A stretch of DNA of 64,000 bases, from the NCBI GenBank assembly GCA_964351315.1, contig CAYGNH010000002.1, positions 216,269-280,268 on the forward strand, in the 5' to 3' direction. Shown here piece after piece: positions 36,931 through 53,854 of this stretch (the first letter of the stretch is position 1; each line of letters starts with the position of its first letter). Origin of the DNA: an uncultured Pseudobdellovibrionaceae bacterium (GTDB lineage Bacteria; Bdellovibrionota; Bdellovibrionia; Bdellovibrionales; JAGQZY01). Position numbers and translations under genes: made by a program. Under the pieces are notes generated by a model that did not search any database, was not told the origin of the DNA, and saw only the letters and a program-made list of their open reading frames with translations.

Positions 36931-37038
36931 AGGAAATCAATAATTTGGATCGAGCCCAAAAACAATGGATTTCCCTAAATTGACCCCCTATTGCGCATAG
37001 GATAAATTGATCTTCTTTGCGTCCAAAAGGAAGTGCCT

Positions 37039-37593
37039 ATGAAAATTTACACCAAAAATGGAGATCGCGGACAAACCACATTGGTGGACGGCAGCCCCAT
37101 AGCAAAATCGGACGCTCGCCTCAAAACCTATGGAACCGTCGATGAGCTCAATGCCCATGTTGGACTCCTACAAACAATGCTGGATAAAGAGGCAAAACTA
37201 AACGGCTTCCACCCCCAATTGTTTGAAATTCAAAATTGGTTGTTTCAACTTGGAAGCCAGCTGGCCTGTGGGAATTCGGAGTTTTCTAAAAAACTGCCCA
37301 CGATTTCAGATAAAAACACCACTCAACTGGAAAGCTGGATGGACCAGTGGGATCAAGAATTACCCGAACTAAAAAACTTTATCCTTCCCGGCGGACACGA
37401 AGCTTCAGCCCAAGCCCATGTTTGTCGAACCGTTGCTCGCCGAGCCGAACGAGCTTGTGTTGTTCTCGATGAAATGACGGAGCTGTCGGTGCCTGCCATT
37501 GCCTTCCTCAATCGTCTGTCAGATTACTTTTTTATGATCTCTCGCTCGATCAACCAAAAAATGGATATTGATTCTGTGATTTGGAACCCCTAA
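37039..37593 (+). CDS. ATP:cob(I)alamin adenosyltransferase, PduO/MMAB type
   Basis: MKIYTKNGDRGQTTL...YGTVDELNAHVGL...LPGG... is canonical PduO-type. An AAGGAAG SD precedes the ATG at 37039. Confidence 0.85.
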   Translation: MKIYTKNGDRGQTTLVDGSPIAKSDARLKTYGTVDELNAHVGLLQTMLDKEAKLNGFHPQLFEIQNWLFQLGSQLACGNSEFSKKLPTISDKNTTQLESWMDQWDQELPELKNFILPGGHEASAQAHVCRTVARRAERACVVLDEMTELSVPAIAFLNRLSDYFFMISRSINQKMDIDSVIWNP

Positions 37594-37596
37594 CCC

Positions 37597-38709
37597 ATGA
37601 AACTTTTTCTTGCGAACAACCAAGACGACGAAGACCTTAAACGCTTCTTCGGAGATCAAACCGTTCCTGGTATTTACGATTATCGAGTGATTCGACCCAA
37701 TTCGTTTTTTGACCAGTACAAACTAACTACCGATGACTATCAAACCTATTTGTTACGTGACGACAACCAGAAAATACAGGCCATGGCTTCCATTTTGTTT
37801 CGCAAAGCTTACGTCAATGCCCAAGAGCAAACCGTTGGCTACGTGACCGACCTGCGAGTTTCTGGATCTCGAAAAGCCACTCTGACTTGGGGTAAAGAGT
37901 TTATTCCGGTGATGCATCAAGAACGGGATAAAAGAAATTGCCAGTTCGTGTTTTCGGACCTGGAACAATACGAAAACAAGGCCTACAACACTCTTCTTCG
38001 CCGACGCAGTCGCAACAGCCGCATGCCGCGCTACCATTTGTTTCGCAAGTTCAATTTGATTGTCGTTTACGGCAAAACATTTTTTGCAACCCCACCCCTA
38101 AAAAGCATTCGAATTGAACATGGTCGGACTGAAGACGCCGAGACCATCACCCGCTATCTGATGGAAAAATCCGTACGCCGACCTCTACGTTATCATTTGA
38201 CCGTAGAAGAACTCGAGCGACGGTGCCGCCTTTGGCCCAACTTTTCCTTGCAAAATTTTTTGGTTGCCCGCAATGCTAAAAACAAGATCATCGGCTGTAT
38301 GGCTCCCTGGAACAATCGTGATGTGCAAAGGATCATCGCTGAAAAATATCATCTAAAATCTTTCCAAGTCTATTCAACAAGCCGAACCCTTTCGGCCTTT
38401 CGTTTGACTCGCCCCTTACCAAAACCTGGTGACCCCTTCCAAGTCAAACATATCACCCATGGCGCCTACGATAATCCAGATATTTTTAATTCCTTATTGA
38501 GTCGGGCTTACGATGAGTGCCTCAACCATGAGTTGTTGGTTTACCCGAATTACTACGGCGACTATGCCACCCGCCCTCCCAGCTCCTTTATCCACGTCAA
38601 AGTCCCCTACGGTTTTTACACCCTGCTGGACAACGAAGTGACTCTTCCCCGCTTCCTCCACCCGAACCCCTTTACCCCCACTCCGGATTTTCAATACAGC
38701 TATTTTTAA
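37597..38709 (+). CDS. Hypothetical protein, 370 aa, possibly a two-lobed GNAT/Fem-like fold (weak)
   Basis: Long ORF starting 3 nt after the adenosyltransferase stop. I recognise no motif with confidence. Confidence 0.6.
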   Translation: MKLFLANNQDDEDLKRFFGDQTVPGIYDYRVIRPNSFFDQYKLTTDDYQTYLLRDDNQKIQAMASILFRKAYVNAQEQTVGYVTDLRVSGSRKATLTWGKEFIPVMHQERDKRNCQFVFSDLEQYENKAYNTLLRRRSRNSRMPRYHLFRKFNLIVVYGKTFFATPPLKSIRIEHGRTEDAETITRYLMEKSVRRPLRYHLTVEELERRCRLWPNFSLQNFLVARNAKNKIIGCMAPWNNRDVQRIIAEKYHLKSFQVYSTSRTLSAFRLTRPLPKPGDPFQVKHITHGAYDNPDIFNSLLSRAYDECLNHELLVYPNYYGDYATRPPSSFIHVKVPYGFYTLLDNEVTLPRFLHPNPFTPTPDFQYSYF

Positions 38710-38936
38710 GGCCTAAGCCCCCCCTCCTTTGCTGTAATGCGCTACACTTAATAAAACCAAGATTTTTCTAATAGTTTAGCTCTGTATAAAGAATAGTGGC
38801 ACCTGAAGCTCGAAAGTATAAACAATTGTAATAAATTTAATGACCGTGAAATCTTTTTCGTACAATTCCACACAAAACTTTGGTTGATTGGGGTCGGGAC
38901 AACAAGACAACAAACAAACATCAATAAGGGGCGTAC

Positions 38937-39620
38937 ATGCAAAACATCTGCTTACTCTACTCTGGTCGAAGAGGGTTGGATGATCAATCGACAAGAATTT
39001 CTGTATTAAGAATTCCAGAGGTTTCTCGCAAACTCAAAGATGCGCAAAGATGGATTGATAACATTTTAGGAACGGATCTTAAAATCGATCTCTACTCTTT
39101 CGTTCAATCTATTGAGTCCGATTTCAACTCCCAATCCAGTTTAAAATCACTGGTAGCAGCGACTGTGCAAATTGGACTGTTCGAACGTTTCGTCAAATAT
39201 CGCAGTCGTCCACAATTTTTAGTTGGCCCCATCAACGGCAACTCAGCCATGAAAGTTTGCGCCGGCTTACAAAACTTTCAGGACTTTATTGAGACCAGCG
39301 ACTTTTGTAAGGAAAACACTTTGATGGCCCGCTTCACTCAGCAAGGCACAAAGTTGTCTGGAGTCAAACTTGAAGATTATGGCGCCTTGATGTGGAACCC
39401 TGAAGGTTTCTACCAAAATTTGGAAATTGAGAAAAAAGAAGCCACAAAGATTATTGAAGAACTCAATTTGCACAACCTTCTGACCCAATGTGTTCACCTC
39501 GGCCCCACTTTCGAATTCCGCAAGGATGAGTTCGAAACGGCTGGCCTAAGTCATCTGGCCTCGATGAGCTCCATTGAAACAGATCCCATTCTTAACAGCT
39601 TTTGGAAATCAGCCATCTAG
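38937..39620 (+). CDS. FabD-like acyltransferase-fold protein lacking the Ser nucleophile (putative pseudoenzyme)
   Basis: By-eye alignment to E. coli FabD. ICLLYSGRRGL aligns with FVFPGQGSQ. GPINGNSAMKVCAGLQNFQDF aligns with GHSLGEYSALVCAGVIDFADA. MARFTQ aligns with MRGKFMQ. LSHLASM aligns with PSHCALM. Confidence 0.55.
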   Translation: MQNICLLYSGRRGLDDQSTRISVLRIPEVSRKLKDAQRWIDNILGTDLKIDLYSFVQSIESDFNSQSSLKSLVAATVQIGLFERFVKYRSRPQFLVGPINGNSAMKVCAGLQNFQDFIETSDFCKENTLMARFTQQGTKLSGVKLEDYGALMWNPEGFYQNLEIEKKEATKIIEELNLHNLLTQCVHLGPTFEFRKDEFETAGLSHLASMSSIETDPILNSFWKSAI

Positions 39621-39632
39621 GAGTTCCTTAAA

Positions 39633-40172
39633 ATGAACTGGAAATTTTTTGCAGTTGTTCTTTTATTTTTCTCGGCTAGCGCGCAAGCTCTCGATTATCA
39701 ATCGGTCTCTGAGCAGTTGGAAGGGTCTTATCGAGTTTTACTGGCGCCTTCTAACGAAGGGACTTATTTGAATTGCCAAACTGGACAAACAGTTCAAGTT
39801 CATTTTAATGATGACCTCATCGAGGTTGCTGGACTCACCCCGTCGTCACCCCTATCCTTTAGCGATATCAATGAAGGTGTCGTCGGTATTTCTGGACCCA
39901 TCATTGGCTATGCGCAACGACGTACAGTATTTAGAGAAGTCGGCGTGGATTTCTATTTGCTAAAAAGTGAGCATCGCAGATGCGAACCCCTTCTTGGAAA
40001 GCTGGGCTGTGTCGGTAAAAAGTGGCGAACCTCGGTCGAAATTAAATTCTTTTTAAACAACTCAGAGGAACAGGATTCTGTTGTTAATTTGGAGTTAGCC
40101 TACCAACCTTTTGAGAACGTGACTCGCGAGGTTTGTTCCTTGGAACAGTCTCCGCTGAGTCTCGACGAATAA
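39633..40172 (+). CDS. Secreted hypothetical protein (4 Cys)
   Basis: Signal peptide MNWKFFAVVLLFFSASAQA. It starts 12 nt after the upstream gene. Confidence 0.6.
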   Translation: MNWKFFAVVLLFFSASAQALDYQSVSEQLEGSYRVLLAPSNEGTYLNCQTGQTVQVHFNDDLIEVAGLTPSSPLSFSDINEGVVGISGPIIGYAQRRTVFREVGVDFYLLKSEHRRCEPLLGKLGCVGKKWRTSVEIKFFLNNSEEQDSVVNLELAYQPFENVTREVCSLEQSPLSLDE

Positions 40173-40678: not shown

Positions 40679-42370
40679 TTATAGGTCTTCTTGGGTGTTT
40701 GAAAGTAGTTCTTCTATAGTCGTAATACCTTGAATCACCTTTTGCAAACCGTGATCTCGGAAAGACTTCATCCCTTGTTCAACGGCTTTCTTTTTGATAG
40801 CACCAGAGTCTTTTCTTTGCATGACTAAGGTTCTCACCTCTTCTGTCACCGTCAATAGTTCTTGAATCAGGGTTCGACCAATATAGCCTTTATTGTTGCA
40901 CTTGTTACAGCCCACAGCCTTGTGAATGTTATGGCCCTCGATTTGTTCGGGTGACAGTCCGAGATTGCGCATTTCAATGTCCGAGGGCTTATGGGGCTCT
41001 TTACAGTGAGGGCAAAGAACTCGAACAAGACGTTGAGAAATAACCCCCAAAAGCGAGGTTGCGATTAGAAAAGGCTCACAACCCATATCGATCAAACGCG
41101 GAAAAGCTCCAGCAGCATCATTGGTGTGAATTGTGGAGAGAACCAAGTGACCGGTGAGAGACGAGTTAATCGCAATTTCGGCCGTTTCCAAGTCACGAAT
41201 CTCCCCGATCATAATAGTGTCTGGATCTTGCCTTAGAATAGCCCGCAGTCCGCTGGCAAAAGTCAGCCCGATTTTAGAGTTCACCTGAATTTGACCAATC
41301 CCATGGATTCGCTGTTCGACCGGATCTTCAACTGTAATAATGTTGGTATCGATCGAGTTGAGTTTTTGCAAACCCGCGTAGAGAGTCGTCGACTTTCCTG
41401 AACCGGTGGGACCTGTTACCAAAACAATACCGTAGGTTCTCGACAGCAAATCATCCAGTTTCGTTAAGTTCTCTTCAGAAAAGCCCAACTGATTCAAATT
41501 AAGAATCACGTTAGAGCGATCTTGCAAACGCATCACGCAACGCTCACCGTGAGAAGTGGGAACCGTATTCAGACGAACATCGATGTCCTTACCGCCAATC
41601 TTTAGCGGAATCCGACCATCTTGAGGCAATCGTTTTTCGGCAATATTTAAATTGCCCATGACTTTGATTCTCGACGTGATGGCATTTTGCAATTTCTTGG
41701 GTGGTTTAAAGACATCGTACAGAACGCCATCGACTCGAAACCGTACAACCATGTCTTTCTCATAGGGCTCAACATGAATATCCGAAGCCTTTTCTTTAAC
41801 GGCTCTCGATAATAATGTGTTCACCAACCGAATCACGGGAGCGTCATCATCGGCCGCCTCAAGCAAATCGATAATAGGTTCGTCTAAATCGTAGTCTTCC
41901 TCTTCGATCTCATCCAAACCTTCTAATGCTGTTGTACCTTTTTCATAAACTCGGTTTATTGCATCGAGAAGCTTCACTTTTGTGGTCAAGATCGGAGTCA
42001 CTCGTTTTTTGAATAGTAAACGCAAATCATCCAAAACCGTAATATTCAGCGGGTTGGTGGTGAGAACCAAAACATGATTTTGATCCTCTTTATACGGTAA
42101 AACCTCAAAGGTCTTGGCGTAGTTAATTGAAATTCCACGGATCATATCCATTGCGATATCATTGATAATAATATCTTTGGCAAATTCAATACCAATGCGT
42201 TGACTGAGCTTTTCCATCACCTTGTCGGTGGTCGGATCGACAATCTCTTCTAAACTTTGACGAACAGTTTTGGTTCCCCCAAAATCCGAGTCAAGCAAGG
42301 TATGAACTTGCTCAGCCGTCAGACTGGTGGATTTTTGAATGATATTTTCAACACCGGTTGCTTGTGCCAT
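40679..42370 (-). CDS. gspE: Type II secretion system ATPase GspE
   Basis: Walker A GPTGSGKST, Asp and His boxes, and the C-terminal tetracysteine CPHC...CNKC. Confidence 0.93.
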   Translation of the reverse strand: MAQATGVENIIQKSTSLTAEQVHTLLDSDFGGTKTVRQSLEEIVDPTTDKVMEKLSQRIGIEFAKDIIINDIAMDMIRGISINYAKTFEVLPYKEDQNHVLVLTTNPLNITVLDDLRLLFKKRVTPILTTKVKLLDAINRVYEKGTTALEGLDEIEEEDYDLDEPIIDLLEAADDDAPVIRLVNTLLSRAVKEKASDIHVEPYEKDMVVRFRVDGVLYDVFKPPKKLQNAITSRIKVMGNLNIAEKRLPQDGRIPLKIGGKDIDVRLNTVPTSHGERCVMRLQDRSNVILNLNQLGFSEENLTKLDDLLSRTYGIVLVTGPTGSGKSTTLYAGLQKLNSIDTNIITVEDPVEQRIHGIGQIQVNSKIGLTFASGLRAILRQDPDTIMIGEIRDLETAEIAINSSLTGHLVLSTIHTNDAAGAFPRLIDMGCEPFLIATSLLGVISQRLVRVLCPHCKEPHKPSDIEMRNLGLSPEQIEGHNIHKAVGCNKCNNKGYIGRTLIQELLTVTEEVRTLVMQRKDSGAIKKKAVEQGMKSFRDHGLQKVIQGITTIEELLSNTQEDL

Positions 42371-42376
42371 AGCTCC

Positions 42377-44956
42377 TTAAAAATCCTCGAGTTCTTCTTC
42401 GACAGCATCAAAGTTACCGTCTGCAGGCTCCAACATCATGGGGGCCGGAGACTCTGGTGCTGGAGGCTCACCAAGAGGGATCGCATCTTCTAAGTCCAAC
42501 TCAACTTCGGCAGGGCTCGGAATATAGGTTTTGGCTGAGGCACTTGAATCTTGAATCATTTTATTGAACTTTTCACCGTAAGGATCACGTCCACCAGAAT
42601 TCTCTTTGATCCAATCGATTCGCTCTGTCATTTTTTGCTGAAGAATCTTTCGATGCCCCTGGGAGTTCCGAATAATTGTGGGTGTTAAAAATACAACCAA
42701 GTTCTTTTTAACTTTTCTAGACGTACTATTTTTGAATAGCCACCCAAGGATTGGGATGTCGCCTAAAAGAGGAATTTTGGACTCAGTGATTGTGTCCTCG
42801 TCTTCCATCAAACCACCAAGTACGGCTGTCTGACCTGACTCAAGAACAATATTGGTTTTTAAAGACTTCTTCGTCAAAGACTGGGCATTGTCCGCCAAAT
42901 TTTGAGCTTGAATGGCCTTTGTACTGACCTTTTGGATTTTTTGCTCCACATTCAAGCGAACAATATTGGAGTCCGGCGAGATGAAGGGTTTGATCTTAAG
43001 CAAGATCGTCGCGTCCTTAAATTGAGGGGTAAAGGTACTCAAGCCTGCGTTGGTCGCACTTTGGGTTGCACCCACTGGAACTTCATCCCCCACTTCGATT
43101 TCGGACTCTTCATTGTCCATAGCTAAAATATTAGGAGTCGATAAAATATTCCCGTTGGTTTTCTCTTTGAGAAAGGAAATCAAAGCAATCAAACTAGGGA
43201 TTTCGATGGTCTGTCCCCCGGCGTTGATTTGAATGGTTTCGCTGGGGTCACCCAAATTGAGAATGGCTCCTTTGCCACCGACAGGGTTGACCAAATCCCC
43301 CAAAGAACTGGATCCTCCTGAAAATCCAATTCGAGCCACGCCTTCACCATTGACGTTAGCGGTTCCATCGTCCGGTCCTTTAAAGAATTTCATGTAGTTC
43401 ATATTCCAGACGTTTTGGTTGGAAGCATCCATTTCCATAATCACAGCTTCCACGAACACTTGATCCTTTGGAATATCAATTTTAGCTAACAAATTCTTCA
43501 CAACCTTATAATCCTGCTTGCTCGCAGTGACGATCAAACTGTTGGTGTTTTCATCAGCTTTAATAACCACGTTGCCATCAAAAATAGATTTTTGAATTTT
43601 TGGTGCCTGAAAGGAGGATTTGTCATCGCTCTTAGCACTTTTCTCTGCAGCTTTCTCCGATTCTTGAGCGATACCAGAAAGAGTTTCTGCAATTTTAACA
43701 GCTTCGCCATGTTTCACATAGTAGACATAAACTCCACCGGCATCCGCAGGATCCAAAGGGTAGTCCAGCCGTTTGACCAAGTTTTCAATCCGATCAATGC
43801 CCTGCTTGTTACCAACAACAATGATCGAGTTAGTTCTCTCATCGGGAGCGACCAATTTTAAGTTTTCTGTTTTCCCGCCATCATTTTTACTAAATCGAGA
43901 GCGACTAAATCGACTCGAGCTCTTTCCTTTTTCTTCTCCGTCTTTAATGATTTTTTCGATCAACTCGGCAATGTCTTTGGACTTGGCATGGCGAATTGGG
44001 ATGACTTCAAGTCGCTCTTCAAAACCAGGCTTATCCAGTTCTTCAATGATACGAGAGATTCTCTCGATACTCGAACCGTAACCGGAAACAATCAACGAGT
44101 TAGTGTTTTCATAGGATTCGACATTGCCCGCTTTTTTCGAAACGAACTTCTCTAAACTCTTTTTTAGACTTTCGGCATCAATGTATTTGAGATTGATAAT
44201 TCGAGTGATCAACTGATCTGAGGTCGGATAGTAGGCACCTGAGTAGGTTTCGATAGAGTCATCTTTAGCGTTGGTTTCTTTGCGAATCTTTAAATAGCCA
44301 TCACCAGTGGGAACCACAGTGTAGCTATTCATAGAGAGGGCGGTTAAGAAAAGCTTCCAGGCCTGCGCCACAGTGACTGGCGTCGGAGCCACAATAGTGA
44401 TTTTTCCACTGATCCCAGGCTCCATAATAAAGTTCTTTTTAGTCAGCTTACTGATCGCATTGGCCACGTCCATAATATTCGCATTAGGGTAGTCGAAGCT
44501 TTCGATGATGTCTGGGAAATTTTCATCGGTGATGTCCTCGGGTTGTGCCTCCGCAAAAGTGAGGCCCTTCTTTTTCGCTCCTGAGTTTTCCACTTTTTTA
44601 ACCTGGATATCTTTCACAGGCGTAGTCGGTCGATTGTTCGTTGGAACAGGCGCCGAAGAACTGTTGCCATTGTTTTGTCCAAAACGAGAGCGACGATTAC
44701 CAAAACGGGATGGTCGCTCCGACTCGTCGGCCACAGGCTCAGGCTCTATCTCAGGCTCTTCGATCACTGGCGGCTCTTCAATTTCCACTTCATTGATTTC
44801 TGGATTTTGCTCGTCATCAAAAAAATCTTCTTGAGCCAATGTATAAATAGGCGCGGGCAAAATATTTTCTGAATTCGTTTCTGACTTTTCAGCTTGTGAT
44901 GTTTGATTAAAACTGATCACAAGAATCGCAATCGTCATGATTCGCATTGTCTTCAT
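42377..44956 (-). CDS. gspD: Type II secretion system secretin GspD
   Basis: Signal peptide, N0-N3-like repeats, and the secretin core ...IPLLGDIPILGWLFKN....VVFLTPTII. Acidic/Pro-rich N- and C-terminal extensions. Confidence 0.92.
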   Translation of the reverse strand: MKTMRIMTIAILVISFNQTSQAEKSETNSENILPAPIYTLAQEDFFDDEQNPEINEVEIEEPPVIEEPEIEPEPVADESERPSRFGNRRSRFGQNNGNSSSAPVPTNNRPTTPVKDIQVKKVENSGAKKKGLTFAEAQPEDITDENFPDIIESFDYPNANIMDVANAISKLTKKNFIMEPGISGKITIVAPTPVTVAQAWKLFLTALSMNSYTVVPTGDGYLKIRKETNAKDDSIETYSGAYYPTSDQLITRIINLKYIDAESLKKSLEKFVSKKAGNVESYENTNSLIVSGYGSSIERISRIIEELDKPGFEERLEVIPIRHAKSKDIAELIEKIIKDGEEKGKSSSRFSRSRFSKNDGGKTENLKLVAPDERTNSIIVVGNKQGIDRIENLVKRLDYPLDPADAGGVYVYYVKHGEAVKIAETLSGIAQESEKAAEKSAKSDDKSSFQAPKIQKSIFDGNVVIKADENTNSLIVTASKQDYKVVKNLLAKIDIPKDQVFVEAVIMEMDASNQNVWNMNYMKFFKGPDDGTANVNGEGVARIGFSGGSSSLGDLVNPVGGKGAILNLGDPSETIQINAGGQTIEIPSLIALISFLKEKTNGNILSTPNILAMDNEESEIEVGDEVPVGATQSATNAGLSTFTPQFKDATILLKIKPFISPDSNIVRLNVEQKIQKVSTKAIQAQNLADNAQSLTKKSLKTNIVLESGQTAVLGGLMEDEDTITESKIPLLGDIPILGWLFKNSTSRKVKKNLVVFLTPTIIRNSQGHRKILQQKMTERIDWIKENSGGRDPYGEKFNKMIQDSSASAKTYIPSPAEVELDLEDAIPLGEPPAPESPAPMMLEPADGNFDAVEEELEDF

Positions 44957-45351
44957 TCGGACCTTCCTATGGTACTGCTTTTTCTATTAAAACCTATATA
45001 TATTGAGAACTTAAGTAAACTCGGCCCACCAAGGCCCGGATCGCGGCCTAGGTCGAGAGGTCATAGCGGTCGGATCAACAATCGCGCCGCATCATTTTAA
45101 AAATTTCAAGTTTTGCAACCGAAGACCCTTAAAATTTCTCTTGTTCCTCTAAAATCAATTTTTTGGATTGCCACTGCCGAAAGAGTTCTGCATTTATTTT
45201 TTTCGGCGCCAAAGATGGCTCATAAAAAAAAAAGAGGCAACAAAACCAACATTCGCTATAAGCGAGACCATTAACAACAGTGTTTTCATGTAGACTTTCC
45301 CGCTAGAAACTTTCTATAGAATACATGGATTATTTTATGGGGATGAATGAA

Positions 45352-46293
45352 TTATTCTAAAGTGTAATTTAAAGTAGTTGAACTGCCACCACGATTGACA
45401 TCGAGCTGGATGCTGTCGGCACTTTTTAGAGCCGAATAAAGCTCCATGGCTTTTTGAGGCGAGTCGACCGGCTCGCCATTCACACCTTTAATAATATCCC
45501 CTCGTTTGAGGCCTAGAGTCTCGTAAATACTCCCTGCCTTGATCGCCACCAGCTTAAAACCACTGATCTCACCACCCGAGCCGGGGGCGACATAGGGCAC
45601 GGCTTTGGCGTCTTGTAAAACCCGCGGCAAATTCTCTAAATACTTATTGAGTTCAGCGCGCTTGAAATTGAAATTGGTCTTGTCGACTTGACCAAATTGC
45701 TCCGGAGTTTTGCTCTGGGAGACACCCATTTGAATGGTGTTTTCCTCTTTGATCTCTATATACTCTAACTTTCGATTGCGAAGATTACGAAACACCACTT
45801 TATGGCGCTGAATATCGCGAATTTTGGCCATCCCTTCCAATTCTTCTCCATCCATCACAGCAAAAATATCTTTGCCACTGACTTGAATAGTGGCCACTGA
45901 CATCTCTCGACGTCCATGAATAATGGTTCCCACTAAACTCAATGGCAAACTGGACAGCACCGGCTGGGTGTTGTCTTCCCCGCCCGGTCCACCGGATTTC
46001 TTTTCACTCATTGAATCTGGAATAAAATGATCAGCATTGAAAATATTTTTGTCTTTCACTCCGGTAAAAACCGACGCCACTTGCGACTTCATTCCGCGGT
46101 TCTTGGCCATCAAGTTTGCTTTCGTAATCCCACCTACGGGTAACATATAGGCGCGGGTATAAGTCGCGATATATTTGGATGTGAGCATCCCCACTAAAAA
46201 CAGGAAGATATAGATATAGGCTCCCTCATAGGGAGGCCGTGGGTTTTTTAAACCGTCCATACCACCAAAAAGAGATCCCAAATTGAATGCCAT
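45352..46293 (-). CDS. gspC: Type II secretion system protein GspC (TM + PDZ)
   Basis: N-terminal TM helix and a C-terminal PDZ-like ...GFKLVAIKAGSIYETLGLKRGDIIKGVNGEPV... It sits upstream of gspD. Confidence 0.75.
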   Translation of the reverse strand: MAFNLGSLFGGMDGLKNPRPPYEGAYIYIFLFLVGMLTSKYIATYTRAYMLPVGGITKANLMAKNRGMKSQVASVFTGVKDKNIFNADHFIPDSMSEKKSGGPGGEDNTQPVLSSLPLSLVGTIIHGRREMSVATIQVSGKDIFAVMDGEELEGMAKIRDIQRHKVVFRNLRNRKLEYIEIKEENTIQMGVSQSKTPEQFGQVDKTNFNFKRAELNKYLENLPRVLQDAKAVPYVAPGSGGEISGFKLVAIKAGSIYETLGLKRGDIIKGVNGEPVDSPQKAMELYSALKSADSIQLDVNRGGSSTTLNYTLE

Positions 46294-46372: not shown

Positions 46373-47002
46373 TCAGCCACGATAAATATTGATCAAAAAA
46401 GAGATCATCGGCGTAAAAACATCGTGCTGAGAGGAGGCATCGGCCGTGACGTTGGTGCTGGCACTTTCAGCTTTCCCGTAACGAAAACTTTTATAGACAA
46501 GTTGAGGCCCGATAGAAAGAAAGCGACCCAGACGGAAATAATAAGTGGCGTCGACCTGGAACCCCAATCCCTCGGTGTAGTCTGATTCTGCCACATTTTC
46601 TAGGGCTTGCTTGGAATAAGGGAAAAAGGTTCCTTTTAAAGCCCATCCGTATTTGACGTAGCCGAAACTGGCCCCCAAAGACGTCCGCGAAGTCAATGGT
46701 GCACTGCCATCAATATCCTGGGTTTCGCCGGTATACAGGACACCAAAATAAAAGCCGTTTCGAAAAATATAGCCTAACTGAATGTCGTAGAATAAAAAGC
46801 TTCGAGTGCGATCAGCGACACCTCCTCCGGTGACCTGATTGTTCTCATCAATCCGGTTGTAGAAAAGGGAAGGACTAAAAACCAAGCCATAGTCTCGCTG
46901 CCATTTATCCAGATCCGAAAAGGTTTCGTAGGATTTGTAGTCTTCGTACTGAGCCTGGACGGCAGAATGGGCAAACAGGATAATAAAGAGAAAAATACGC
47001 AT
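46373..47002 (-). CDS. Small outer-membrane beta-barrel protein
   Basis: Signal peptide MRIFLFIILFAHSAVQA. Alternating aromatic/hydrophilic beta-strand pattern throughout. Confidence 0.65.
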   Translation of the reverse strand: MRIFLFIILFAHSAVQAQYEDYKSYETFSDLDKWQRDYGLVFSPSLFYNRIDENNQVTGGGVADRTRSFLFYDIQLGYIFRNGFYFGVLYTGETQDIDGSAPLTSRTSLGASFGYVKYGWALKGTFFPYSKQALENVAESDYTEGLGFQVDATYYFRLGRFLSIGPQLVYKSFRYGKAESASTNVTADASSQHDVFTPMISFLINIYRG

Positions 47003-47134
47003 GCCCTATTATTTGATGGACTCGCGATAGAATCAAGCCATTCGTTGGTCAGCCTCACCAAACCAGCGCAATCGCCATTGAACTCCAGGATCTTTGTGAT
47101 TAAACTAGAAAGGTTCGCGGAGGAAGGTCCAGTC

Positions 47135-48349
47135 ATGCCAATCTATGAATACAAAGGGCTGAATAAAGCCGGCAAAAACGTCAAAGGCACTGTCGATGCG
47201 GACAATCTGCGTAATGCCCGAGTCAAACTGAAAAAAGATGGCATTTATGTGGTTGATCTGGCGGATAAGACCAAACGGCTTCGAAAAAAGAAAAGCAAAG
47301 GCGGTAACAACAAAGGTATCAGCGTTGATGACCTTTCGAATATGACTCGTCAGATGGCTTCTTTGATTAAAGCAAACATCCCTCTAGTTGATGCCCTTGG
47401 CGCCTGCTCAGACCAAATGGATAATCCCATGTTGAAAGAGGTTTTGGCCGATTGTAAAAATCATGTCAACGAAGGGAGCCCTTTCCACAAAACCCTTCGT
47501 AAATACCCAAAGATCTTTGATAAGATTTTTGTTTCCATGATTGAAGCCGGTGAGATGTCCGGAACCTTAGACACCATTCTTCTAAGGCTGGCAGAATTTA
47601 CCGAAGACAAAGCAGAACTCAACTCTAAAATAAAATCTGCCATGCTTTATCCTATTATTATGATTTTTTTCATGGTGGGTATTTTGGCGGTGATGTTTGT
47701 GTTTGTCGTTCCACAGATGGTGAGCATTTTTGAGGATGCCGAAAAAGCTCTGCCTTGGTACACCCAGATTGTGATCAGCATGAGTGGTGCCATCGTCAAT
47801 TACTGGTGGTTGATCTTGTTGGGAGTGGGCTCCTTAATCTTTGTTTTTATTCAATGGACCAGATCGGAAACCGGGCGCCCCAAATGGGACGCCATCAAGC
47901 TGGTTCTCCCGGTCTCAGGACCTTTGACACGGATGATTGCGGTGTCGAGATTCACACGAACCCTCTCCACCTTACTGGCTGGTGGCGTTCCCATGCTCAA
48001 TGCCATGGACATTGTTAAAAATGTAGTCAATAACGAAGTCTTGGCGAAAGCCATTCGCGAAGCCAGAGATAACATTAGCGAAGGGGAATCCATCGCCGGT
48101 CCGCTGAAGAAATCAGAACAGTTCCCCCCGATTGTGATTCACATGGTTGGAATTGGTGAAAAAACAGGCGATTTGGAAAAAATGTTGAATCAGGTGAGTG
48201 ACACCTACGATTTTCAGGTGAAAAACAAAGTGGCGGGCCTGACCTCGGTCCTTGAGCCGGTCATGATCATTTTTATGGGGGGTGTCATTGGTATGATTGT
48301 ATTTTCTCTCATGGTGCCAATGTTTGAACTCGCCAACATCGCAGAGTAG
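47135..48349 (+). CDS. gspF: Type II secretion system inner-membrane platform protein GspF
   Basis: MPIYEYKGLNKAGKNVKG... and two GspF repeats with 3 TM helices. GGAGGAAGG lies upstream of the ATG at 47135. Confidence 0.92.
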   Translation: MPIYEYKGLNKAGKNVKGTVDADNLRNARVKLKKDGIYVVDLADKTKRLRKKKSKGGNNKGISVDDLSNMTRQMASLIKANIPLVDALGACSDQMDNPMLKEVLADCKNHVNEGSPFHKTLRKYPKIFDKIFVSMIEAGEMSGTLDTILLRLAEFTEDKAELNSKIKSAMLYPIIMIFFMVGILAVMFVFVVPQMVSIFEDAEKALPWYTQIVISMSGAIVNYWWLILLGVGSLIFVFIQWTRSETGRPKWDAIKLVLPVSGPLTRMIAVSRFTRTLSTLLAGGVPMLNAMDIVKNVVNNEVLAKAIREARDNISEGESIAGPLKKSEQFPPIVIHMVGIGEKTGDLEKMLNQVSDTYDFQVKNKVAGLTSVLEPVMIIFMGGVIGMIVFSLMVPMFELANIAE

Positions 48350-48382
48350 TATGGTGCAATTAAACAGTTGAGGAGTGAGTTT

Positions 48383-48802
48383 ATGTTTTTAAACAATCGA
48401 AACGGGTTTTCACTTGTGGAAATTATGATCGTGGTCGTAATTATTGGAATTATTGGTGCCACCATGGGGAACCGACTTTTTGGTGGATTAGACCGAGCCA
48501 AAGTGAAGGACGCCCAAAATATGATGCGAAACTTTGCGGATGCTTTGGAGATGTATGCCACCGATTGCAACTCCTACCCCACCACGGACCAAGGCCTAGA
48601 GGCATTAATCGATGAGCCCGGTGGAGACCCGGCCTGTGAAGCCTGGGGCCCCCAATATCTAAAGAAACTTCCTAAAGATCCTTGGGGTCGTCCTTATATC
48701 TACGAGTCTGATGGAGTGGAGTTCAATATTATTTCTCTCGGAAAAGACAAAAGAGAAAATGGCGATGGATTCGGGAAGGACATCCATTACAACCAACTTT
48801 AA
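48383..48802 (+). CDS. gspG: Type II secretion major pseudopilin GspG
   Basis: MFLNNRNG|FSLVEIMIVVVIIGII..., ...KDPWGRPYIY......SLGKD is canonical GspG. Confidence 0.93.
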   Translation: MFLNNRNGFSLVEIMIVVVIIGIIGATMGNRLFGGLDRAKVKDAQNMMRNFADALEMYATDCNSYPTTDQGLEALIDEPGGDPACEAWGPQYLKKLPKDPWGRPYIYESDGVEFNIISLGKDKRENGDGFGKDIHYNQL

Positions 48803-49481
48803 TCTGAAGAGGTTCTTCACGTCCTCAAACACATCCCATTCACCTTCTTGGGTTTCGGCCGGTTTCTCGCTGGTCGAAATCATGATTGTCATCGTTATAA
48901 TTGGCTTTTTTGTTGCCTACGGGGCCCGTCGAATTTCAGATCGTACCGATAATGTAAAAACTCAGGTTCGTCGTTTTGCGACTATCACTAAAAAATTAAG
49001 AAATCGTGCCCGCCTCGACAACCAAACCTATCGTCTTGTTTTTGATCTGCCTGTAGAACGCAACAAACAGCAAAGCTACTGGATTGAGTCGACCAGCAAA
49101 CCAGCTCTTTTACTCAATCAAGAGCAGCGAGAAGAATTGGAAGAGGACCTTGAAGACAAAGAGACACAAGACGGAAAAAAGTATCGCCCCGACCCTCAGG
49201 GTTTCGCTCAAGACACTCGCGTTTTAAAGGAGGCCCCAGCCACCTTGCCGGACGGATTATTTTTTGATTCCATTGAACTGATGGGCGATCCTATTGAAAA
49301 ATTGAGTGAGGGTCGTATTTACATCTATTTTTTTCCCCAGGGTTATGTTCAAGGCAGTGCCATTCACTTCACCGATCGTGATAAAGTGAATTGGACTGTG
49401 GTCCTCGAAGGACTGACAGGTCGGGTCAGCGTGTTTGCAAGAGACCGCAGCCTTAGCGACTTTAAAATCGAAGAGGAGTGA
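48759..49481 (+). CDS. gspH: Minor pseudopilin, GspH-like, with an unusually long predicted leader
   Basis: ...SAG|FSLVEIMIVIVIIGFFVAYG... The only in-frame ATG/GTG/TTG starts lie inside the gspG 3' end (48759 or 48765). Confidence 0.7.
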   Translation: MAMDSGRTSITTNFNLKRFFTSSNTSHSPSWVSAGFSLVEIMIVIVIIGFFVAYGARRISDRTDNVKTQVRRFATITKKLRNRARLDNQTYRLVFDLPVERNKQQSYWIESTSKPALLLNQEQREELEEDLEDKETQDGKKYRPDPQGFAQDTRVLKEAPATLPDGLFFDSIELMGDPIEKLSEGRIYIYFFPQGYVQGSAIHFTDRDKVNWTVVLEGLTGRVSVFARDRSLSDFKIEEE

Positions 49482-50023
49482 TTTTTTTGAAGACATTTAA
49501 AGCCAAAAACCATGGCTTTTCTCTTTTTGAAGTTTTAATTGCAATGGCGATCATGTCATCGGCATCCATGCTTATTTATACGGCGTGGACCGGCAATCAA
49601 CTGCGGGTGCGAAAAATGGCGATTAACAACAAGTCGGCGATTTTACTTGAGCAAATCATGGCTGAACTTGAGATCAAGTACGCTGAAAGACTCACCCAAT
49701 TGCCAGACTCCGAAGGAGGTGTTTTTGAAGATCATCCCAAGTTTTCTTGGACCATGGTTTCTCGAGATTTTGAAATGCCTGACCTGCGATCGGTTTTAAT
49801 TTCTGGTGGTGATGGAGATGAAGCCATGCTTCTTATTGTCGATAAGTTGACCGAGTACCTCAACCAGAGCGTGAAAGAGATGAAGGTCACCGTCGAATAC
49901 AACTTTGGTGGCAAAGGTAAAAAAACTAGCGTTAAGTATTCTGCTACAACCTTTCTCGTGGATTTTAACCAGGCTCTCCCCCTCGGCGGCGGTGTTCCTA
50001 GTGGCGGAGGGCTCGGCCCATGA
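49478..50023 (+). CDS. gspI: Minor pseudopilin GspI
   Basis: ...KNHG|FSLFEVLIAMAIMS... Size and position match GspI. Confidence 0.8.
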   Translation: MIFLKTFKAKNHGFSLFEVLIAMAIMSSASMLIYTAWTGNQLRVRKMAINNKSAILLEQIMAELEIKYAERLTQLPDSEGGVFEDHPKFSWTMVSRDFEMPDLRSVLISGGDGDEAMLLIVDKLTEYLNQSVKEMKVTVEYNFGGKGKKTSVKYSATTFLVDFNQALPLGGGVPSGGGLGP

Positions 50024-50826
50024 AAAAGGGATTCACACTTGTTGAAGTTCTTATTTCAATGCTGATTATGTCGATGCTCACCGTATTAATTTCCACATCC
50101 ATCCGCACCGGCGTTCGCAACAAAAAGAATTTGGAAGCCAAAATCGAAGCCGAAACTGATCTTTATGATGCCCTTCGTGTCATCAAGCAAGATGTAGAGC
50201 GAGCTTTCCACTACCAAGATGTGTTTTTTGAAATTGAAAACCTAGCGATCCAGCAATTGGAGGCAGAAAAACAAAAACAGGGGCAAAACCCTCAAGGGCA
50301 ACAAAGATCAGCCCCACGCCTCCCCCCACTGCAATTGACTCAGTTTTTGGGAGAAGCTCAGAGTATGCACTTTACCACCCTCAATCACTTTCGCACCAAA
50401 TACAATGCCCCTGAAAGTGATCAGATGGAGGTGGGTTATTATATGGATGGTTGCGACCGACGAGACGGCAAAGGTAGCACTAAGTGTTTGTGGCGACGGG
50501 GAAATCCACAAATAGACGATGAGGTCGATAAAGGAGGAGCCCGCGTGGTGGTCGCCTACGATGTGACCAAGTTTTCTTTGCAGTACCGAAGCAACCAAGA
50601 ACAAGATGAATGGGTTGATCAATGGCGATCCGATAATAAAGGACGGCCGGATCATCGCAATAAATTTCCCCACTTTGTAAAAATTAACTTAGAAATTGAA
50701 GACAAAGAAAAGAAAGATTCGAAATCCATCTCTCAATCCATGGTTGCTCGATTGGCCTTTCCGAACAACGACCCTCATGTCATGCAACGACCGCAAAACC
50801 AACAGCAACGGCCGGGCGGAAACTGA
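50020..50826 (+). CDS. gspJ: Minor pseudopilin GspJ
   Basis: MKKG|FTLVEVLISMLIMS... ATGA overlap with gspI. Confidence 0.8.
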   Translation: MKKGFTLVEVLISMLIMSMLTVLISTSIRTGVRNKKNLEAKIEAETDLYDALRVIKQDVERAFHYQDVFFEIENLAIQQLEAEKQKQGQNPQGQQRSAPRLPPLQLTQFLGEAQSMHFTTLNHFRTKYNAPESDQMEVGYYMDGCDRRDGKGSTKCLWRRGNPQIDDEVDKGGARVVVAYDVTKFSLQYRSNQEQDEWVDQWRSDNKGRPDHRNKFPHFVKINLEIEDKEKKDSKSISQSMVARLAFPNNDPHVMQRPQNQQQRPGGN

Positions 50827-52145
50827 TGAAAAAACTGTATAGAATGCAGAAAAATGAAAAAGGGTCAGCCATCATGTTGGCGGTTTTTACGGTCACTTTT
50901 GTGATGTTCCTCGCTATGGAAATTTCTCAATCGACCATTATGGAGTATTTAACCTCCGCCACTGAGGTCAAAAAGGTTCAAGCTCACTATGCGGCGGAAG
51001 CCTGCATGCGCCTTAACCTTCTGAGAATCAAAGGCTACCAGCAAGCCACTCGCCTACTGGGGGACAAAGTTCCCGCCGCACAACTGCAAATGATGGATAT
51101 GATTTGGCAGTTCCCTTTGTCCTGGCCGCCAAGCTTGCCCCAAGAAATCAGTTCCTTCGACAGTTCGACTATCCAAAAAACAGTAAGTGGATCCCTTTTA
51201 AAACAGCAGTTTGTTTCATCGATTGTGGCTGAAGGTGGGAAAATTGATATCAATGACCTTGGCTCTCCTTCGGAAGGTTTACGGCTTAAAACCAAAAGCC
51301 AAATTCTACAGAGGCTACAAGCTCGAGTGCTAAATGGCGAAGACACCTTCGCAGAACGCTATGCCAACTTTAACTTTGAAGAGCTTATTAACAATATCGC
51401 AGACTGGATCGACGACGGTGATGAGAGTCTCAATGGAGGCAGTGAAAAAGCCTACTATACCGATTTCCGAAACGAATTTATCCCCCCCAATCGCCCCTTC
51501 AAAACCATGGAAGAAATGCATATGGTCGCCGGCATGACCGACGAGATTTTTGAAATTTTAGCACCACAAATCACCCTTTATGGAGTCAAAGGGATCAATG
51601 TAAATCAGGCGGAAAGAGATGTTTTACTGAGTCTCTTCAATAACTATGATCCAGAGACCTCGAACGAAGTGGTCACAGAGATCTTAAAGCGCCGGAACAA
51701 CCCAGAGTTAGGCGGTCCCTTTCAGGACGAAAAAGAGTTTATTTCTTTTTTAGGGGCCTATATTGACCCCGATAAATTCAATGATGAAGAAAATAAAGTC
51801 CCTTTATTCTTTGGCGTCGAGCTCAACTTTAGAGTGAATTGCATTGGTGTCTCAGGAAAAATGACTCGAGAAATTGAAGGTGTGGTGTATAACGCCGATT
51901 CTGTAAAAATTCGCCTCAAAGAAGCGCTAATGAAAGAAATGGAGGGCCAAACCAACCCGCGCTGCCAAAACTTCACGGGCGACGAACTTTTCGAGTGTCT
52001 CTGCGATGACGAGCCAGATGATGCCAAACGCAAAAAATGCATCGACAACAAGAAAGCAGCCACCCAAAAACAGGACCAAGGTAGTAGTCAACCACCCCCA
52101 CTTCCCCCAGGTCCACCGAGAATGATTATCCAGCAGATCAAATAG
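50826..52145 (+). CDS. gspK: Minor pseudopilin GspK
   Basis: ...KGSAIMLAVFTVTFVMFLAM... (no Glu5, as expected) and ...ADWIDDGDESLNGGSEKAYY... Confidence 0.85.
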   Translation: MKKLYRMQKNEKGSAIMLAVFTVTFVMFLAMEISQSTIMEYLTSATEVKKVQAHYAAEACMRLNLLRIKGYQQATRLLGDKVPAAQLQMMDMIWQFPLSWPPSLPQEISSFDSSTIQKTVSGSLLKQQFVSSIVAEGGKIDINDLGSPSEGLRLKTKSQILQRLQARVLNGEDTFAERYANFNFEELINNIADWIDDGDESLNGGSEKAYYTDFRNEFIPPNRPFKTMEEMHMVAGMTDEIFEILAPQITLYGVKGINVNQAERDVLLSLFNNYDPETSNEVVTEILKRRNNPELGGPFQDEKEFISFLGAYIDPDKFNDEENKVPLFFGVELNFRVNCIGVSGKMTREIEGVVYNADSVKIRLKEALMKEMEGQTNPRCQNFTGDELFECLCDDEPDDAKRKKCIDNKKAATQKQDQGSSQPPPLPPGPPRMIIQQIK

Positions 52146-52215
52146 GGTGCAATAGACAGCAAACCCTTGATATCATAGAATAACTTTTAGAAGCCTCGGA
52201 CTTAAAAGGGATTTT

Positions 52216-53853
52216 ATGAGAAGCCTCGGAATAGACATCGGTCGTTATAGCATTAAAGTGGTTGAGATTCTCGCCAACAATCGAACTTACGAAATCACCA
52301 ATGCTAAAGAATATAAAATTCTTAATATGGAAACCAGCAATCAAGAAATTGATATTTTGCAAACGCTGGATACCATTTCAAAAGAATTTGACACAGAAAC
52401 AGCGAAAGTAACTTGTTCAATTCGACAACAGTACGTCAGTACAAGAAAACTTTTTTTCCCTTTTAAAGAGCGAGTCAAAATCCACAAAAGTTTAGCCTTT
52501 GAACTTGAAGACGATATGCCACTAGCCGTTGATAAAGCGATCTATGATTCAAAGATCATAAAATTTCACGAGAAAACAGCTGAAGTGGTGGCCATGGCTT
52601 GCGTCGCCGAGGAAGTGGAAAAAACATTGGATATCTTTGCCAGAGGTCATATCGATCCGGATATCATCACGCCCGAGTTTTGTGCTATCGCCAACCTTTA
52701 TGAAAAATGGTACAAGTCCCCAGAAGAAGCCGTTGAGGATGAAAACTCAGACAAACAACCTGATAAAATGATTGTTCATATCGGACATTCGAAGTCTTTT
52801 GTCGGTGTCGTCAGTGATGGGTACCTGGTATGGGGACGCAGCATAATGTGGGGAGTTGAGCGCGTGGCCTCTTCTATCTCGCAAAGCTTTCAAGTGCCCT
52901 TCTCCACTGCTTTAGACATGATGCCCAGTAAAGCTTTTCTGCTGTTGTCTTCACAAGAGGCCAACAAGGATCAAATTAAAATGTCCGATGCCGTCATCAG
53001 ATCTCTGGCACCAATCATTCAGGATCTTCGACTCTCAATTATGTTGGCCAACACCGAGTATGGAGCCAATATCGAAAAAATTGAAATGATTGGTGGTGCC
53101 TCTAAGATCAAAAACCTGGCCGCCTATTTTACTCAAGAGCTGGAGTGCCCCGCCAACATCAGCAATCCCATCACGGATTTGAGCGGTCAACCCATGAAGA
53201 ACAACGAACGGCTGGCCGAGGTTTTCGTTGTTTCGATGGGCTTGGCCATCGAAGGACTTCGACGCCCGTTTAATCCACCCGTCAACTTTAGACAAGGCGA
53301 CTTAGCCAAGAAAAATCTTTCCTTCGATAAATTTTGGGAAAAATGGAGTTACACCGCAAAAATGGTGGCCGCCCTTTACCTTTGTTTTTGCGTTTACGGA
53401 GTGGCCATGGACACGATTGCCACACAGCTTGAAACGGCCTCTTATGATGTGTTAACCACCCAGGCTAGTAAAATTGCAAAGCTTAAAACAAAAACTGGAA
53501 TCGAGTCTAAAATTAGCGCTTTTATTCGTAAAAACAAAAAGAAGGCAGAGCTTGTACAAGTTTACGATAAACTGGGTGAGATCAACTCGCCTTTGAAGTT
53601 TGTCAATGACGTCAGTCAAACACTTCCCAACAATAAGGCCGATAAGAGCTTTGAAATTCGACGATTTGTAGTCGATAACACAAAGGTCAATATTCAGGGC
53701 GTGGCCGCTGACTCTAAAACCATTCAAAAACTAAACAAAGCGTTAAAAGGTGTGGCATTGAACGGACAAGTCAAAACCGTTCCAGCTGTGATCCAACCCG
53801 AAGACGGTCGACAGGTCTTCGGTTTCGAATTCAATGTAAAGAGAAAGAACTGA
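52216..53853 (+). CDS. gspL: GspL-like assembly protein with a PilM/actin-like N-terminal domain
   Basis: MRSLGIDIGRYSIKVVEI... (an actin-fold phosphate-1-like start), a central TM helix (...MVAALYLCFCVYGVAM...) and a periplasmic C-terminal domain. Confidence 0.7.
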   Translation: MRSLGIDIGRYSIKVVEILANNRTYEITNAKEYKILNMETSNQEIDILQTLDTISKEFDTETAKVTCSIRQQYVSTRKLFFPFKERVKIHKSLAFELEDDMPLAVDKAIYDSKIIKFHEKTAEVVAMACVAEEVEKTLDIFARGHIDPDIITPEFCAIANLYEKWYKSPEEAVEDENSDKQPDKMIVHIGHSKSFVGVVSDGYLVWGRSIMWGVERVASSISQSFQVPFSTALDMMPSKAFLLLSSQEANKDQIKMSDAVIRSLAPIIQDLRLSIMLANTEYGANIEKIEMIGGASKIKNLAAYFTQELECPANISNPITDLSGQPMKNNERLAEVFVVSMGLAIEGLRRPFNPPVNFRQGDLAKKNLSFDKFWEKWSYTAKMVAALYLCFCVYGVAMDTIATQLETASYDVLTTQASKIAKLKTKTGIESKISAFIRKNKKKAELVQVYDKLGEINSPLKFVNDVSQTLPNNKADKSFEIRRFVVDNTKVNIQGVAADSKTIQKLNKALKGVALNGQVKTVPAVIQPEDGRQVFGFEFNVKRKN

Positions 53854-53854
53854 T

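Follow-up and report, generated by a model that had tools for sequence, protein, structure and literature searches.

A truncated relative of FabD in the Bdellovibrionales that lacks the acyltransferase catalytic residues

Introduction

The 64,000-nucleotide stretch of DNA analyzed here (the window) comes from an uncultured Pseudobdellovibrionaceae bacterium (contig CAYGNH010000002.1, positions 216,269 to 280,268) and encodes, at 38937-39620 on the forward strand, a 227-residue protein with an apparent likeness to the malonyl-CoA:acyl carrier protein (ACP) transacylase FabD. Is this protein an acyltransferase (AT), a derivative of one or a chance look-alike, and could it still carry out the chemistry of the family? 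A sequence-only reading of the locus had proposed a truncated AT-fold protein that does not transfer acyl groups. The protein was given the working name AT227, for a 227-amino acid relic of the AT fold, and we describe here the evidence that it is a derivative of the AT superfamily, together with what its conservation and its genomic surroundings suggest about its role.

Relationship of AT227 to FabD

The main alignments used for sequence comparison were A1, containing 39 orthologs of AT227; A3, containing 104 representatives of the short family to which it belongs, with a mean identity of 25%; and A7, containing three long forms and Escherichia coli FabD. All counts out of 104 given below refer to A3. 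Direct searches with AT227 alone gave no match in Pfam-A (2025 copy), NCBIfam 20, PADLOC or PHROGs, and no PDB sequence was matched by phmmer or hmmsearch, either with AT227 alone or with the 39-ortholog profile; the hits returned by such searches were noise, e.g. DUF4367, RFXAP and MsrR. AT227 itself did not match PF00698 at E ≤ 1.

The relationship could be followed through intermediates. The short-family profile reached three proteins of 310-331 amino acids (P0167, P0180 and P0183) at E values from 9e-24 to 1e-19, and all three carry a GCSLGD elbow, the motif PLHSP opposite FabD PSHCA, and IGPAxTL near the C terminus. Against Pfam Acyl_transf_1 these proteins scored E values of 7e-14, 8e-9 and 4e-7, the first two passing the curated cut-off, and P0183 also matched crystallized FabDs in the PDB (3im8 at 1.8e-11, followed by twenty further AT chains). 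Alignment of A3 to A7 with hhalign gave a probability of 99.8% and E = 6e-30 over AT227 residues 1-120; the 104-sequence family profile against E. coli FabD alone gave E = 7e-4, and BLASTP of AT227 against E. coli FabD, as a single comparison, gave 22 bits and E = 0.008. BLASTP, hhalign and MAFFT agreed on the register, placing Ile99 opposite FabD Ser92 and VCAG opposite VCAG, so that the N-terminal alignment made by eye in the sequence-only reading, including the helix after the nucleophile, was reproduced. Weak matches to PF00698 were seen in 10 of the 104 short members (best E = 4.5e-4), all below threshold (the Pfam gathering score is 32.7 bits), and no other Pfam family recurred in more than two of them.

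A structural model of AT227 was built with AlphaFold2 from the 39-sequence alignment and had a mean predicted local distance difference test score (pLDDT) of 88.9 and a predicted template modeling score of 0.88. When the model was searched against the PDB with Foldseek, a check that had been suggested together with the initial proposal, 47 of the best 50 matches were FabD or the AT domains of polyketide synthases (PKS) or fatty acid synthases (FAS). The top match was Vibrio cholerae FabD (3hjv_B; E = 1e-3, probability 1.0), and local alignments covered ~120 residues with a root mean square deviation (rmsd) of 3-4 Å.

AT227 thus shows both common ancestry with the FabD/AT superfamily, by profile comparison and intermediates, and its large-subdomain fold, in the predicted structure. 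Because these are two independent lines, transitive sequence homology and fold search, we accept the relationship, and AT227 almost certainly shares AT ancestry with FabD. An accidental resemblance between unrelated folds would fit the lack of any direct Pfam, NCBIfam or PDB sequence match for AT227 or its close-ortholog profile, as well as the mere 22 bits of the pairwise comparison, but it is extremely unlikely given the strong statistics of the transitive homology, the dominance of AT domains in the fold search and the identical register obtained by three methods. Since ancestry and fold were found while every catalytic and architectural feature by which FabD itself was looked for proved to be missing (see below), AT227 is a derivative of the superfamily and lies outside the PF00698 enzyme family. 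The initial view of a truncated AT-fold protein without acyl transfer therefore stands, although it underestimated the extent of degeneration.

The AT227 family

The coding sequence is as follows.

38937..39620, + strand: coding sequence of AT227 (open reading frame list, orthologs, dN/dS, AlphaFold2 model, Foldseek)

It opens with an ATG codon preceded by a Shine-Dalgarno-like AAGGGG, and the product is cytoplasmic, having no signal peptide. A search of 5.8 billion proteins returned 39 relatives with 35-100% identity, mostly of 222-243 amino acids, with N-terminal extensions up to 260 amino acids in three; the orthologs agree in their start Met and in length. No Pfam domain was found in any of the 39, and no database source gave them a family name other than "hypothetical protein." When the family profile was run against 1.84 billion cluster representatives, 241 clusters at 50% identity came up at E ≤ 1e-3, including 110 that reached E ≤ 1e-30, with members mostly of 215-255 amino acids. 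The ratio of nonsynonymous to synonymous substitution rates (dN/dS) was 0.09 and 0.03 in the two close ortholog pairs with a finite dS below 2; in the other close pairs, synonymous sites were mostly saturated. Judged from this sequence conservation, AT227 is a real gene, as first read, and evidently under strong purifying selection. A pseudogene or decaying reading frame is ruled out by the conserved length, the 241 clusters and dN/dS values of at most 0.09.

Among contigs representing one genome per species in GTDB, 36 AT227 loci were recovered, all from Bdellovibrionales or Bdellovibrionia metagenome-assembled genomes, and the family was present in each Bdellovibrionales lineage sampled. Neither Pfam nor NCBIfam contains a model of the family, whose fold and evolutionary origin are now assigned. 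One further match of the profile, P0162 (1802 amino acids in ~50-residue tandem repeats, with 23 matched stretches and E = 4e-26), was discarded as a repeat artifact; multi-stretch matches of this kind inflate profile scores.

Retained and lost parts of the fold

At 227 residues against 309, AT227 is 82 amino acids shorter than FabD, in line with the original estimate of about 80. The parts that could be aligned or modeled are listed below.

38946..38978, + strand: strand β1 and degenerate oxyanion loop, residues 4-14, ICLLYSGRRGL opposite FabD FAFVFPGQGSQ (alignments)

38994..39047, + strand: family signature block R20-x4-R25-I-P-E-V...Q37, helices 17-23 and 27-44 (column counts)

39165..39188, + strand: core helix motif V-Q78-I-G-L-F-E-R84, opposite FabD helix 63-77 (column counts)

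39225..39239, + strand: vestigial nucleophile elbow G97-P-I99-N-G101 opposite FabD G90-H-S92-L-G94 (three alignment methods)

39240..39290, + strand: helix after the elbow, NSAMKVCAGLQNFQDFI opposite FabD EYSALVCAGVIDFADAV (BLASTP, MAFFT, hhalign)

39297..39431, + strand: variable replacement segment, residues 121-165 (MAFFT, AlphaFold2 model, column entropy)

39492..39509, + strand: strand and G-P turn, V-H-L-G189-P190-T opposite FabD Y-E-V-G-P-G (alignments)

39582..39605, + strand: C-terminal helix signature D216-P-I-L-N-S-F-W223, family consensus DPMLxWFW (column counts, AlphaFold2 model)

Based on the MAFFT alignment with FabD and the long forms (A2) and the secondary structure of the model, AT227 keeps strand β1, helices α1-α5, strand β2, the elbow and the helix that follows it, as well as the final helix-strand(GP)-helix-strand-helix of the large subdomain. 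Conservation within the kept parts is uneven. In the oxyanion-loop region, Phe8 is present in 95 of 104 sequences; the proposal that this loop is retained holds for Gly10, which is moderately conserved (69/104), but not for the equivalent of FabD Gln11, which is unconserved in the family and lost in AT227, where the loop reads GRRGL. The signature block is the most constant element: Arg25 and Pro27 occur in 104/104 sequences, Gln37 in 102, Val29 in 101, Arg20 in 100 and Glu28 in 96. It is mostly common to the long relatives that bear the Ser and His, and Pro27 and Val29 also occur in FabD. In the core helix, Arg84 (104/104) is specific to the family, and Leu81 and Gln78 are found in 101 and 100 sequences, respectively; its Q-x-G/A-L corresponds to what we take to be the canonical PKS AT motif "QVAL." The helix after the elbow is less strict (Ser103 in 78/104, Gly110 in 80/104). 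Toward the C terminus, Gly189 (99/104) and Pro190 (90/104) form the G-P turn, whose FabD counterparts G276 and P277 are invariant in alignment A2, and helix 217-226 of the model carries Asp216 (103/104), Pro217 (100/104) and Leu219 (102/104) together with an aromatic cluster.

In the MAFFT alignment, ~120 FabD residues, roughly 125-255, give way to ~45 variable residues in AT227. Gone with them are the last part of the Arg117 helix, the ferredoxin-like small subdomain, the loop with His201 and another two helices, so that AT227 is without the whole small subdomain and ~50 further residues of the large one; no ferredoxin-like small subdomain was found in either the alignment or the AlphaFold2 model. 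The replacement segment is modeled as short helices, a disordered loop at 137-141 (pLDDT < 50) and a β-hairpin (148-153/159-162), and it is here that column entropy and gaps reach their maximum for the family. This segment also contains GALMWN, which had been likened to the GAMAAI strand of FabD. Neither Gly149 nor the residues after it are conserved, and the likeness did not hold up; the predicted strand 148-153 could be a topological remnant.

Loss of the catalytic machinery

Acyl transfer by AT domains follows a ping-pong mechanism that relies on a Ser-His dyad. Both residues are required even in a divergent AT-like domain with thioesterase activity (PMC8003026). The elbow of AT227 does read G-P-I-N-G at residues 97-101, as had been noted, with Ile99 in the place of the nucleophile. 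Among the 104 sequences, position 99 is Ser in 21, Ile in 13, Val in 12 and other residues in the remainder, and Gly101 is found in 48; an intact GxSxG is restricted to 13 representatives, typically as G-N-S-N-G in distant members. In A1, only 4 of the 39 orthologs have Ser at the elbow position. Loss of the Ser across orthologs, raised as a check by the sequence-only reading, is therefore widespread, but no single substitution has been fixed in its place.

The other catalytic positions fared no better. No column of the 104-sequence alignment exceeds 19% His, and none holds a conserved Cys. The loop carrying FabD His201 is deleted in the MAFFT alignment, and the supposed His motif LSHLASM is not its equivalent: His206 of AT227 is Asp, Glu or Arg in most relatives. 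FabD Arg117 falls opposite a gap in the same alignment. The stretch MARFTQ, taken earlier for the malonate-binding Arg region, places its Arg132 where the family is most variable and richest in gaps (32/104 gaps in that column, with Val, Glu and Pro the commonest residues). With the Ser, His and Arg machinery absent, Ser-His ping-pong acyl transfer should be impossible, as judged from the AT mechanism, and AT227 probably lacks AT-type catalysis. The decarboxylase-like role that had been entertained is unsupported, because no catalytic constellation is conserved.

Since the long forms have GCSLG and position 99 of the short family is so varied, the pattern indicates an ancestral elbow Ser that would have been drifting ever since a deletion took away the middle of the protein and, with it, the His. 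The nucleophile elbow appears to have been released from catalytic constraint and to be evolving almost freely across a Bdellovibrionales-wide family.

Selection, by contrast with the elbow, is directed at another set of polar residues, situated in the helices of the N-terminal part and in the C-terminal helix: Arg20, Arg25, Glu28, Gln37, Gln78, Arg84 and Asp216-Pro217. Arg25, Pro27 and Arg84 are invariant in the 104 sequences, and Arg20, Ile26, Glu28, Val29, Gln37, Gln78, Leu81, Gly189, Asp216, Pro217 and Leu219 are kept in at least 92%. Pro27, Val29, Gln78-x-G-L and the G-P turn are general structural motifs of ATs; Arg20, Arg25, Glu28, Gln37, Arg84 and Asp216 are specific to the family. As most of the latter also occur in the long relatives that retain Ser and His, they are older than the truncation and do not constitute a replacement active site.

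Upstream region and genomic neighborhood

Three further features lie around the gene.

38826..38902, + strand: conserved non-coding block containing TTGTAAT, TGAAATCTTTTTCGTA, CTTTGGTTGATTG and GGGACAA (aligned upstream regions)

39633..40172, + strand: downstream gene for a secreted protein of 179 amino acids (open reading frame, signal-peptide-like N terminus)

40679-46293, - strand, and 46967-55542, + strand: type II secretion system (T2SS) cluster, arranged as two divergent operons

The upstream block ends ~35 nucleotides before the AT227 ATG. In 8-10 orthologous upstream regions of the near clade it is nearly invariant where the proteins are 40-82% identical. An exact 12-mer taken from it occurs once in each of 13 near-clade loci, in every case ahead of the ortholog, and once in the window, where a second site has one mismatch. 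No RNA structure was conserved in the alignment of upstream regions and no Rfam match was obtained in the 228-bp upstream gap, and a 5' leader RNA or riboswitch there was rejected on these grounds. The block is probably AT227's own promoter or operator. It is a poor match to σ70 and may be an alternative-σ promoter or an operator.

The region as a whole is a housekeeping one, with genes for ResB/CcsA cytochrome c maturation, N-formylglutamate amidohydrolase, a PduO-type adenosyltransferase, type II secretion and tRNA synthetases. Gene order is broadly syntenic across loci, but the way in which the genes around AT227 are grouped into operons varies. In the near clade, to which the window belongs, PduO, the 370-amino acid protein gene and AT227 run in the same direction and are followed by gspE and gspD on the opposite strand. 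In the distant clade, gspE, gspD and gspC precede AT227 on the opposite strand, and the 370-amino acid protein gene and PduO follow it, also on the opposite strand, leaving AT227 divergent from the T2SS genes and convergent with its other neighbor. The gspC-D-E operon is thus inverted relative to AT227 between Bdellovibrionales clades. For P0250, the homolog that diverges most, the gene is flanked by gspC on one side and an aldehyde dehydrogenase gene on the other. No canonical fabD was found in the window or in the 45 fetched loci.

The 370-residue neighbor (37597-38709, + strand), previously an unassigned protein that AT227 was said to follow, is adjacent in the window as stated but proved to be a tandem GNAT (here GNAT370). 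Its AlphaFold2 model has a pLDDT of 92, and the protein has no Pfam or NCBIfam match; Foldseek returned eukaryotic N-myristoyltransferases first (E ~1e-11, template modeling score ~0.55), then the tandem GNAT MAB_4324 and Eis. GNAT370 starts 4 nucleotides past the stop codon of the gene for a PduO-type cob(I)alamin adenosyltransferase (37033-37593, + strand), and in one locus, L046, the two reading frames overlap. The pair is kept across Bdellovibrionales, including L046, a 3-Mb genome without AT227 within ~5 kb downstream. Because of the 4-nucleotide gap, and the overlap in L046, GNAT370 appears to be coupled to PduO rather than to AT227. An obligate operon of AT227 with the 370-residue protein is ruled out by variable orientation, absences and the L046 locus.

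The 179-residue protein starts 12 nucleotides past the AT227 stop codon and is probably co-transcribed with it in the window. It has a Sec signal peptide with predicted cleavage after AQA and four Cys residues, and library searches gave it no family match. AT227 is followed by a homolog of it in L001 and L005-L008 alone (38-48% identity), so that the small unit proposed earlier exists in the closest relatives and not elsewhere, and the protein is not a conserved partner of AT227. Co-occurrence with the two flanking genes had been suggested as a check; neither is a constant partner. A split enzyme, in which a neighbor would supply the small subdomain and the His, was rejected: the 179-residue protein is secreted, is limited to the closest relatives and is unrelated to the 171-residue protein downstream of a long AT form, and the upstream neighbor is a tandem GNAT.

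Within the T2SS cluster, the first operon contains a gspC-like gene (313 amino acids), a secretin and an ATPase, and the second contains gspF, gspK and a PilM-like gene. In orthologous loci, the ATPase has an N-terminal MshEN domain, of the cyclic di-GMP-binding type. Elsewhere in the window, an 813-residue protein (10451-12892, + strand) has as its sole Pfam match a weak spermidine-synthase-like domain at residues 533-684, its large N-terminal part being unmatched.

Possible functions of AT227

The reading that we favor, and consider reasonably likely, is that AT227 is an AT-derived relic acting as a non-catalytic binding module. Deletion of the middle of an ancestral FabD-like protein would have removed the small subdomain, the His loop and the carboxylate-binding Arg; catalysis at the elbow would have been lost upon that deletion, and the Ser would afterward have been replaced, by Ile in AT227. 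What would remain is the partner- or ligand-docking surface of the ancestral stand-alone acyltransferase. Possible ligands are a carrier protein, a phosphopantetheine or CoA moiety, or another protein, which AT227 might sequester, recruit or regulate. Retention of a docking or ligand surface with loss of the chemistry is the most economical idea, because the invariant residues are common to the probably active long relatives. Several points weigh against it. Homology over the C-terminal 100 residues is based on motifs in the MAFFT alignment and a high-rmsd global Foldseek superposition, without a significant profile match; GxSxG persists in the 13 representatives mentioned above, leaving room for residual chemistry in some; and the neighborhood yields no conserved operon partner. 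Instead of a docking surface, the invariant polar cluster could also form structural salt bridges buried within the protein, or a new active site. Any specific partner is much less probable than either AT ancestry or the absence of AT-type catalysis.

A new active site would make AT227 a different enzyme, built from Arg20, Arg25, Glu28, Gln37, Gln78, Arg84 and Asp216, possibly with Asp102/Ser103, which could act as a hydrolase, lyase or decarboxylase on an acyl-thioester or phospho-ligand. Strict conservation of seven charged or polar residues at so low a mean identity is a pattern typical of an active or ligand site, and Ser103 of the "D-S-A" motif is widely kept. There is, however, no universal nucleophile, Ser103 reaching 75%, His at most 19% in any column and Cys not being conserved; most of the invariant residues occur in long relatives that have a Ser/His site of their own, and so predate the truncation; and AT is the sole enzyme family matched. 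We regard this possibility as unlikely. Two roles suggested by neighboring genes appear less probable still. AT and GNAT folds both handle acyl thioesters, and AT227 might bind acyl-ACP or acyl-CoA and hand the acyl group to the tandem GNAT, whose resemblance to N-myristoyltransferases and whose adjacency to AT227 in 23 loci from two clades would suit such an adaptor. It is hard to reconcile with this that the distant clade has the two genes in convergent orientation, so that they are not co-transcribed, that no GNAT stands beside AT227 in at least six loci (L014, L022, L032, L036, L039 and L040) and in L045, that the L046 PduO-GNAT pair does without AT227 nearby, that GNAT370 seems tied to PduO, and that AT227 has its own conserved upstream block; the adaptor is very unlikely. 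An accessory or regulatory function in the adjacent T2SS (gspC-gspD-gspE) is equally hard to credit. The cluster adjoins AT227 in most loci of both clades, and in the distant clade and at P0250 AT227 is divergent from gspC-gspD with a common intergenic region. Orientation varies, however, being convergent in the window, L017 and L038 have no secretin within 6 kb upstream, and the adjacency may merely reflect conserved gene order in a broadly syntenic housekeeping region; we also know of no T2SS component with an AT fold.

Returning to the binding module, a bolder form of it would have the AT227 family be order-wide, free-standing AT-fold pseudoenzymes of predatory Bdellovibrionales that keep the ancestral docking face alone and now serve as regulators or adaptors; binding of ACP or a partner would, for example, couple lipid or acyl metabolism to secretion or to the predatory cycle. 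This is possible, but we hold it to be doubtful. To our knowledge, a stand-alone bacterial pseudo-acyltransferase with a signaling or scaffolding role has not been described, and a literature search for a stand-alone serine-less AT-like protein or a link to Bdellovibrio returned nothing relevant beyond the AT-like domains of polyunsaturated fatty acid (PUFA) synthases.

A fold and an origin can now be given to a family of at least 241 clusters at 50% identity that was so far "hypothetical," and it offers a natural example of an enzyme fold decaying into a pseudoenzyme. The order of decay that we propose would run from a long form with Ser and His, through deletion of the middle, to drift of the elbow while the other surface stayed invariant. 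If that surface docks a carrier protein or another partner, the AT227 family would be regulators of a new kind in predatory bacteria and would give those who engineer PKS and FAS a minimal AT docking module; if it does not, a modest gain in annotation remains. In either case AT227 is useful as a pseudoenzyme case study, and would become more interesting if a partner were found.

Comparison with known systems

AT227 has the same large-subdomain architecture as FabD (E. coli b1092; PDB 3hjv, 3im8 and 4rr5), namely residues 1-120 and the C-terminal β-α-β-α, and the two share Pro27/Val29, Q-x-(G/A)-L, P92, the elbow Gly, VCAG and the G-P turn. Unlike FabD, AT227 has no small subdomain and no equivalent of His201, Arg117 or Gln11, and Ile stands in the position of Ser92; it is also a stand-alone protein, confined to one bacterial order and encoded outside a fab operon. 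The AT-like domain of Thraustochytrium PUFA synthase resembles AT227 in having an AT fold and no longer being a malonyl transacylase (PMC8003026). That domain, from subunit B, is a thioesterase dependent on Ser96 and His220 (PMC8003026), and it is full-length with both residues in place, whereas AT227 has neither.

The closest sequence relatives outside the short family are the uncharacterized metagenomic proteins P0183, P0180 and P0167 (L041:556-1551, L042:8001-8963 and L044:671-1603, respectively), which share with AT227 the motifs G-I-D-x-L-D, R-L-x-V-L-(K/S)-x-P-x-V, Gln37, V-Q-(V/I)-G-L-(F/Y)-(D/E)-R and I-G-P-A. They differ from it in being full-length ATs with Ser, His and small subdomain kept, in matching Acyl_transf_1 and in lying in different genomic contexts. 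The long forms are presumably active enzymes and AT227 a truncated derivative. They form a stand-alone subfamily, sister to the short family, that has neither the GQGSQ oxyanion loop nor the malonyl-binding Arg, and are encoded either after a cbb3-oxidase/FixG cluster, together with a 171-residue membrane protein, or overlapping an α/β-hydrolase gene.

Vestigial domains are also found in megasynthases, such as the AT-docking remnants after the ketosynthase in trans-AT PKS and the pseudo-ketoreductase and pseudo-methyltransferase domains of FAS and PKS. Like AT227, these are truncated, dead derivatives of a catalytic fold, and they are kept for structural or docking roles. The megasynthase vestiges are embedded in multidomain synthases, whereas AT227 is a free-standing, single-domain protein that occurs across an order, with no synthase nearby.

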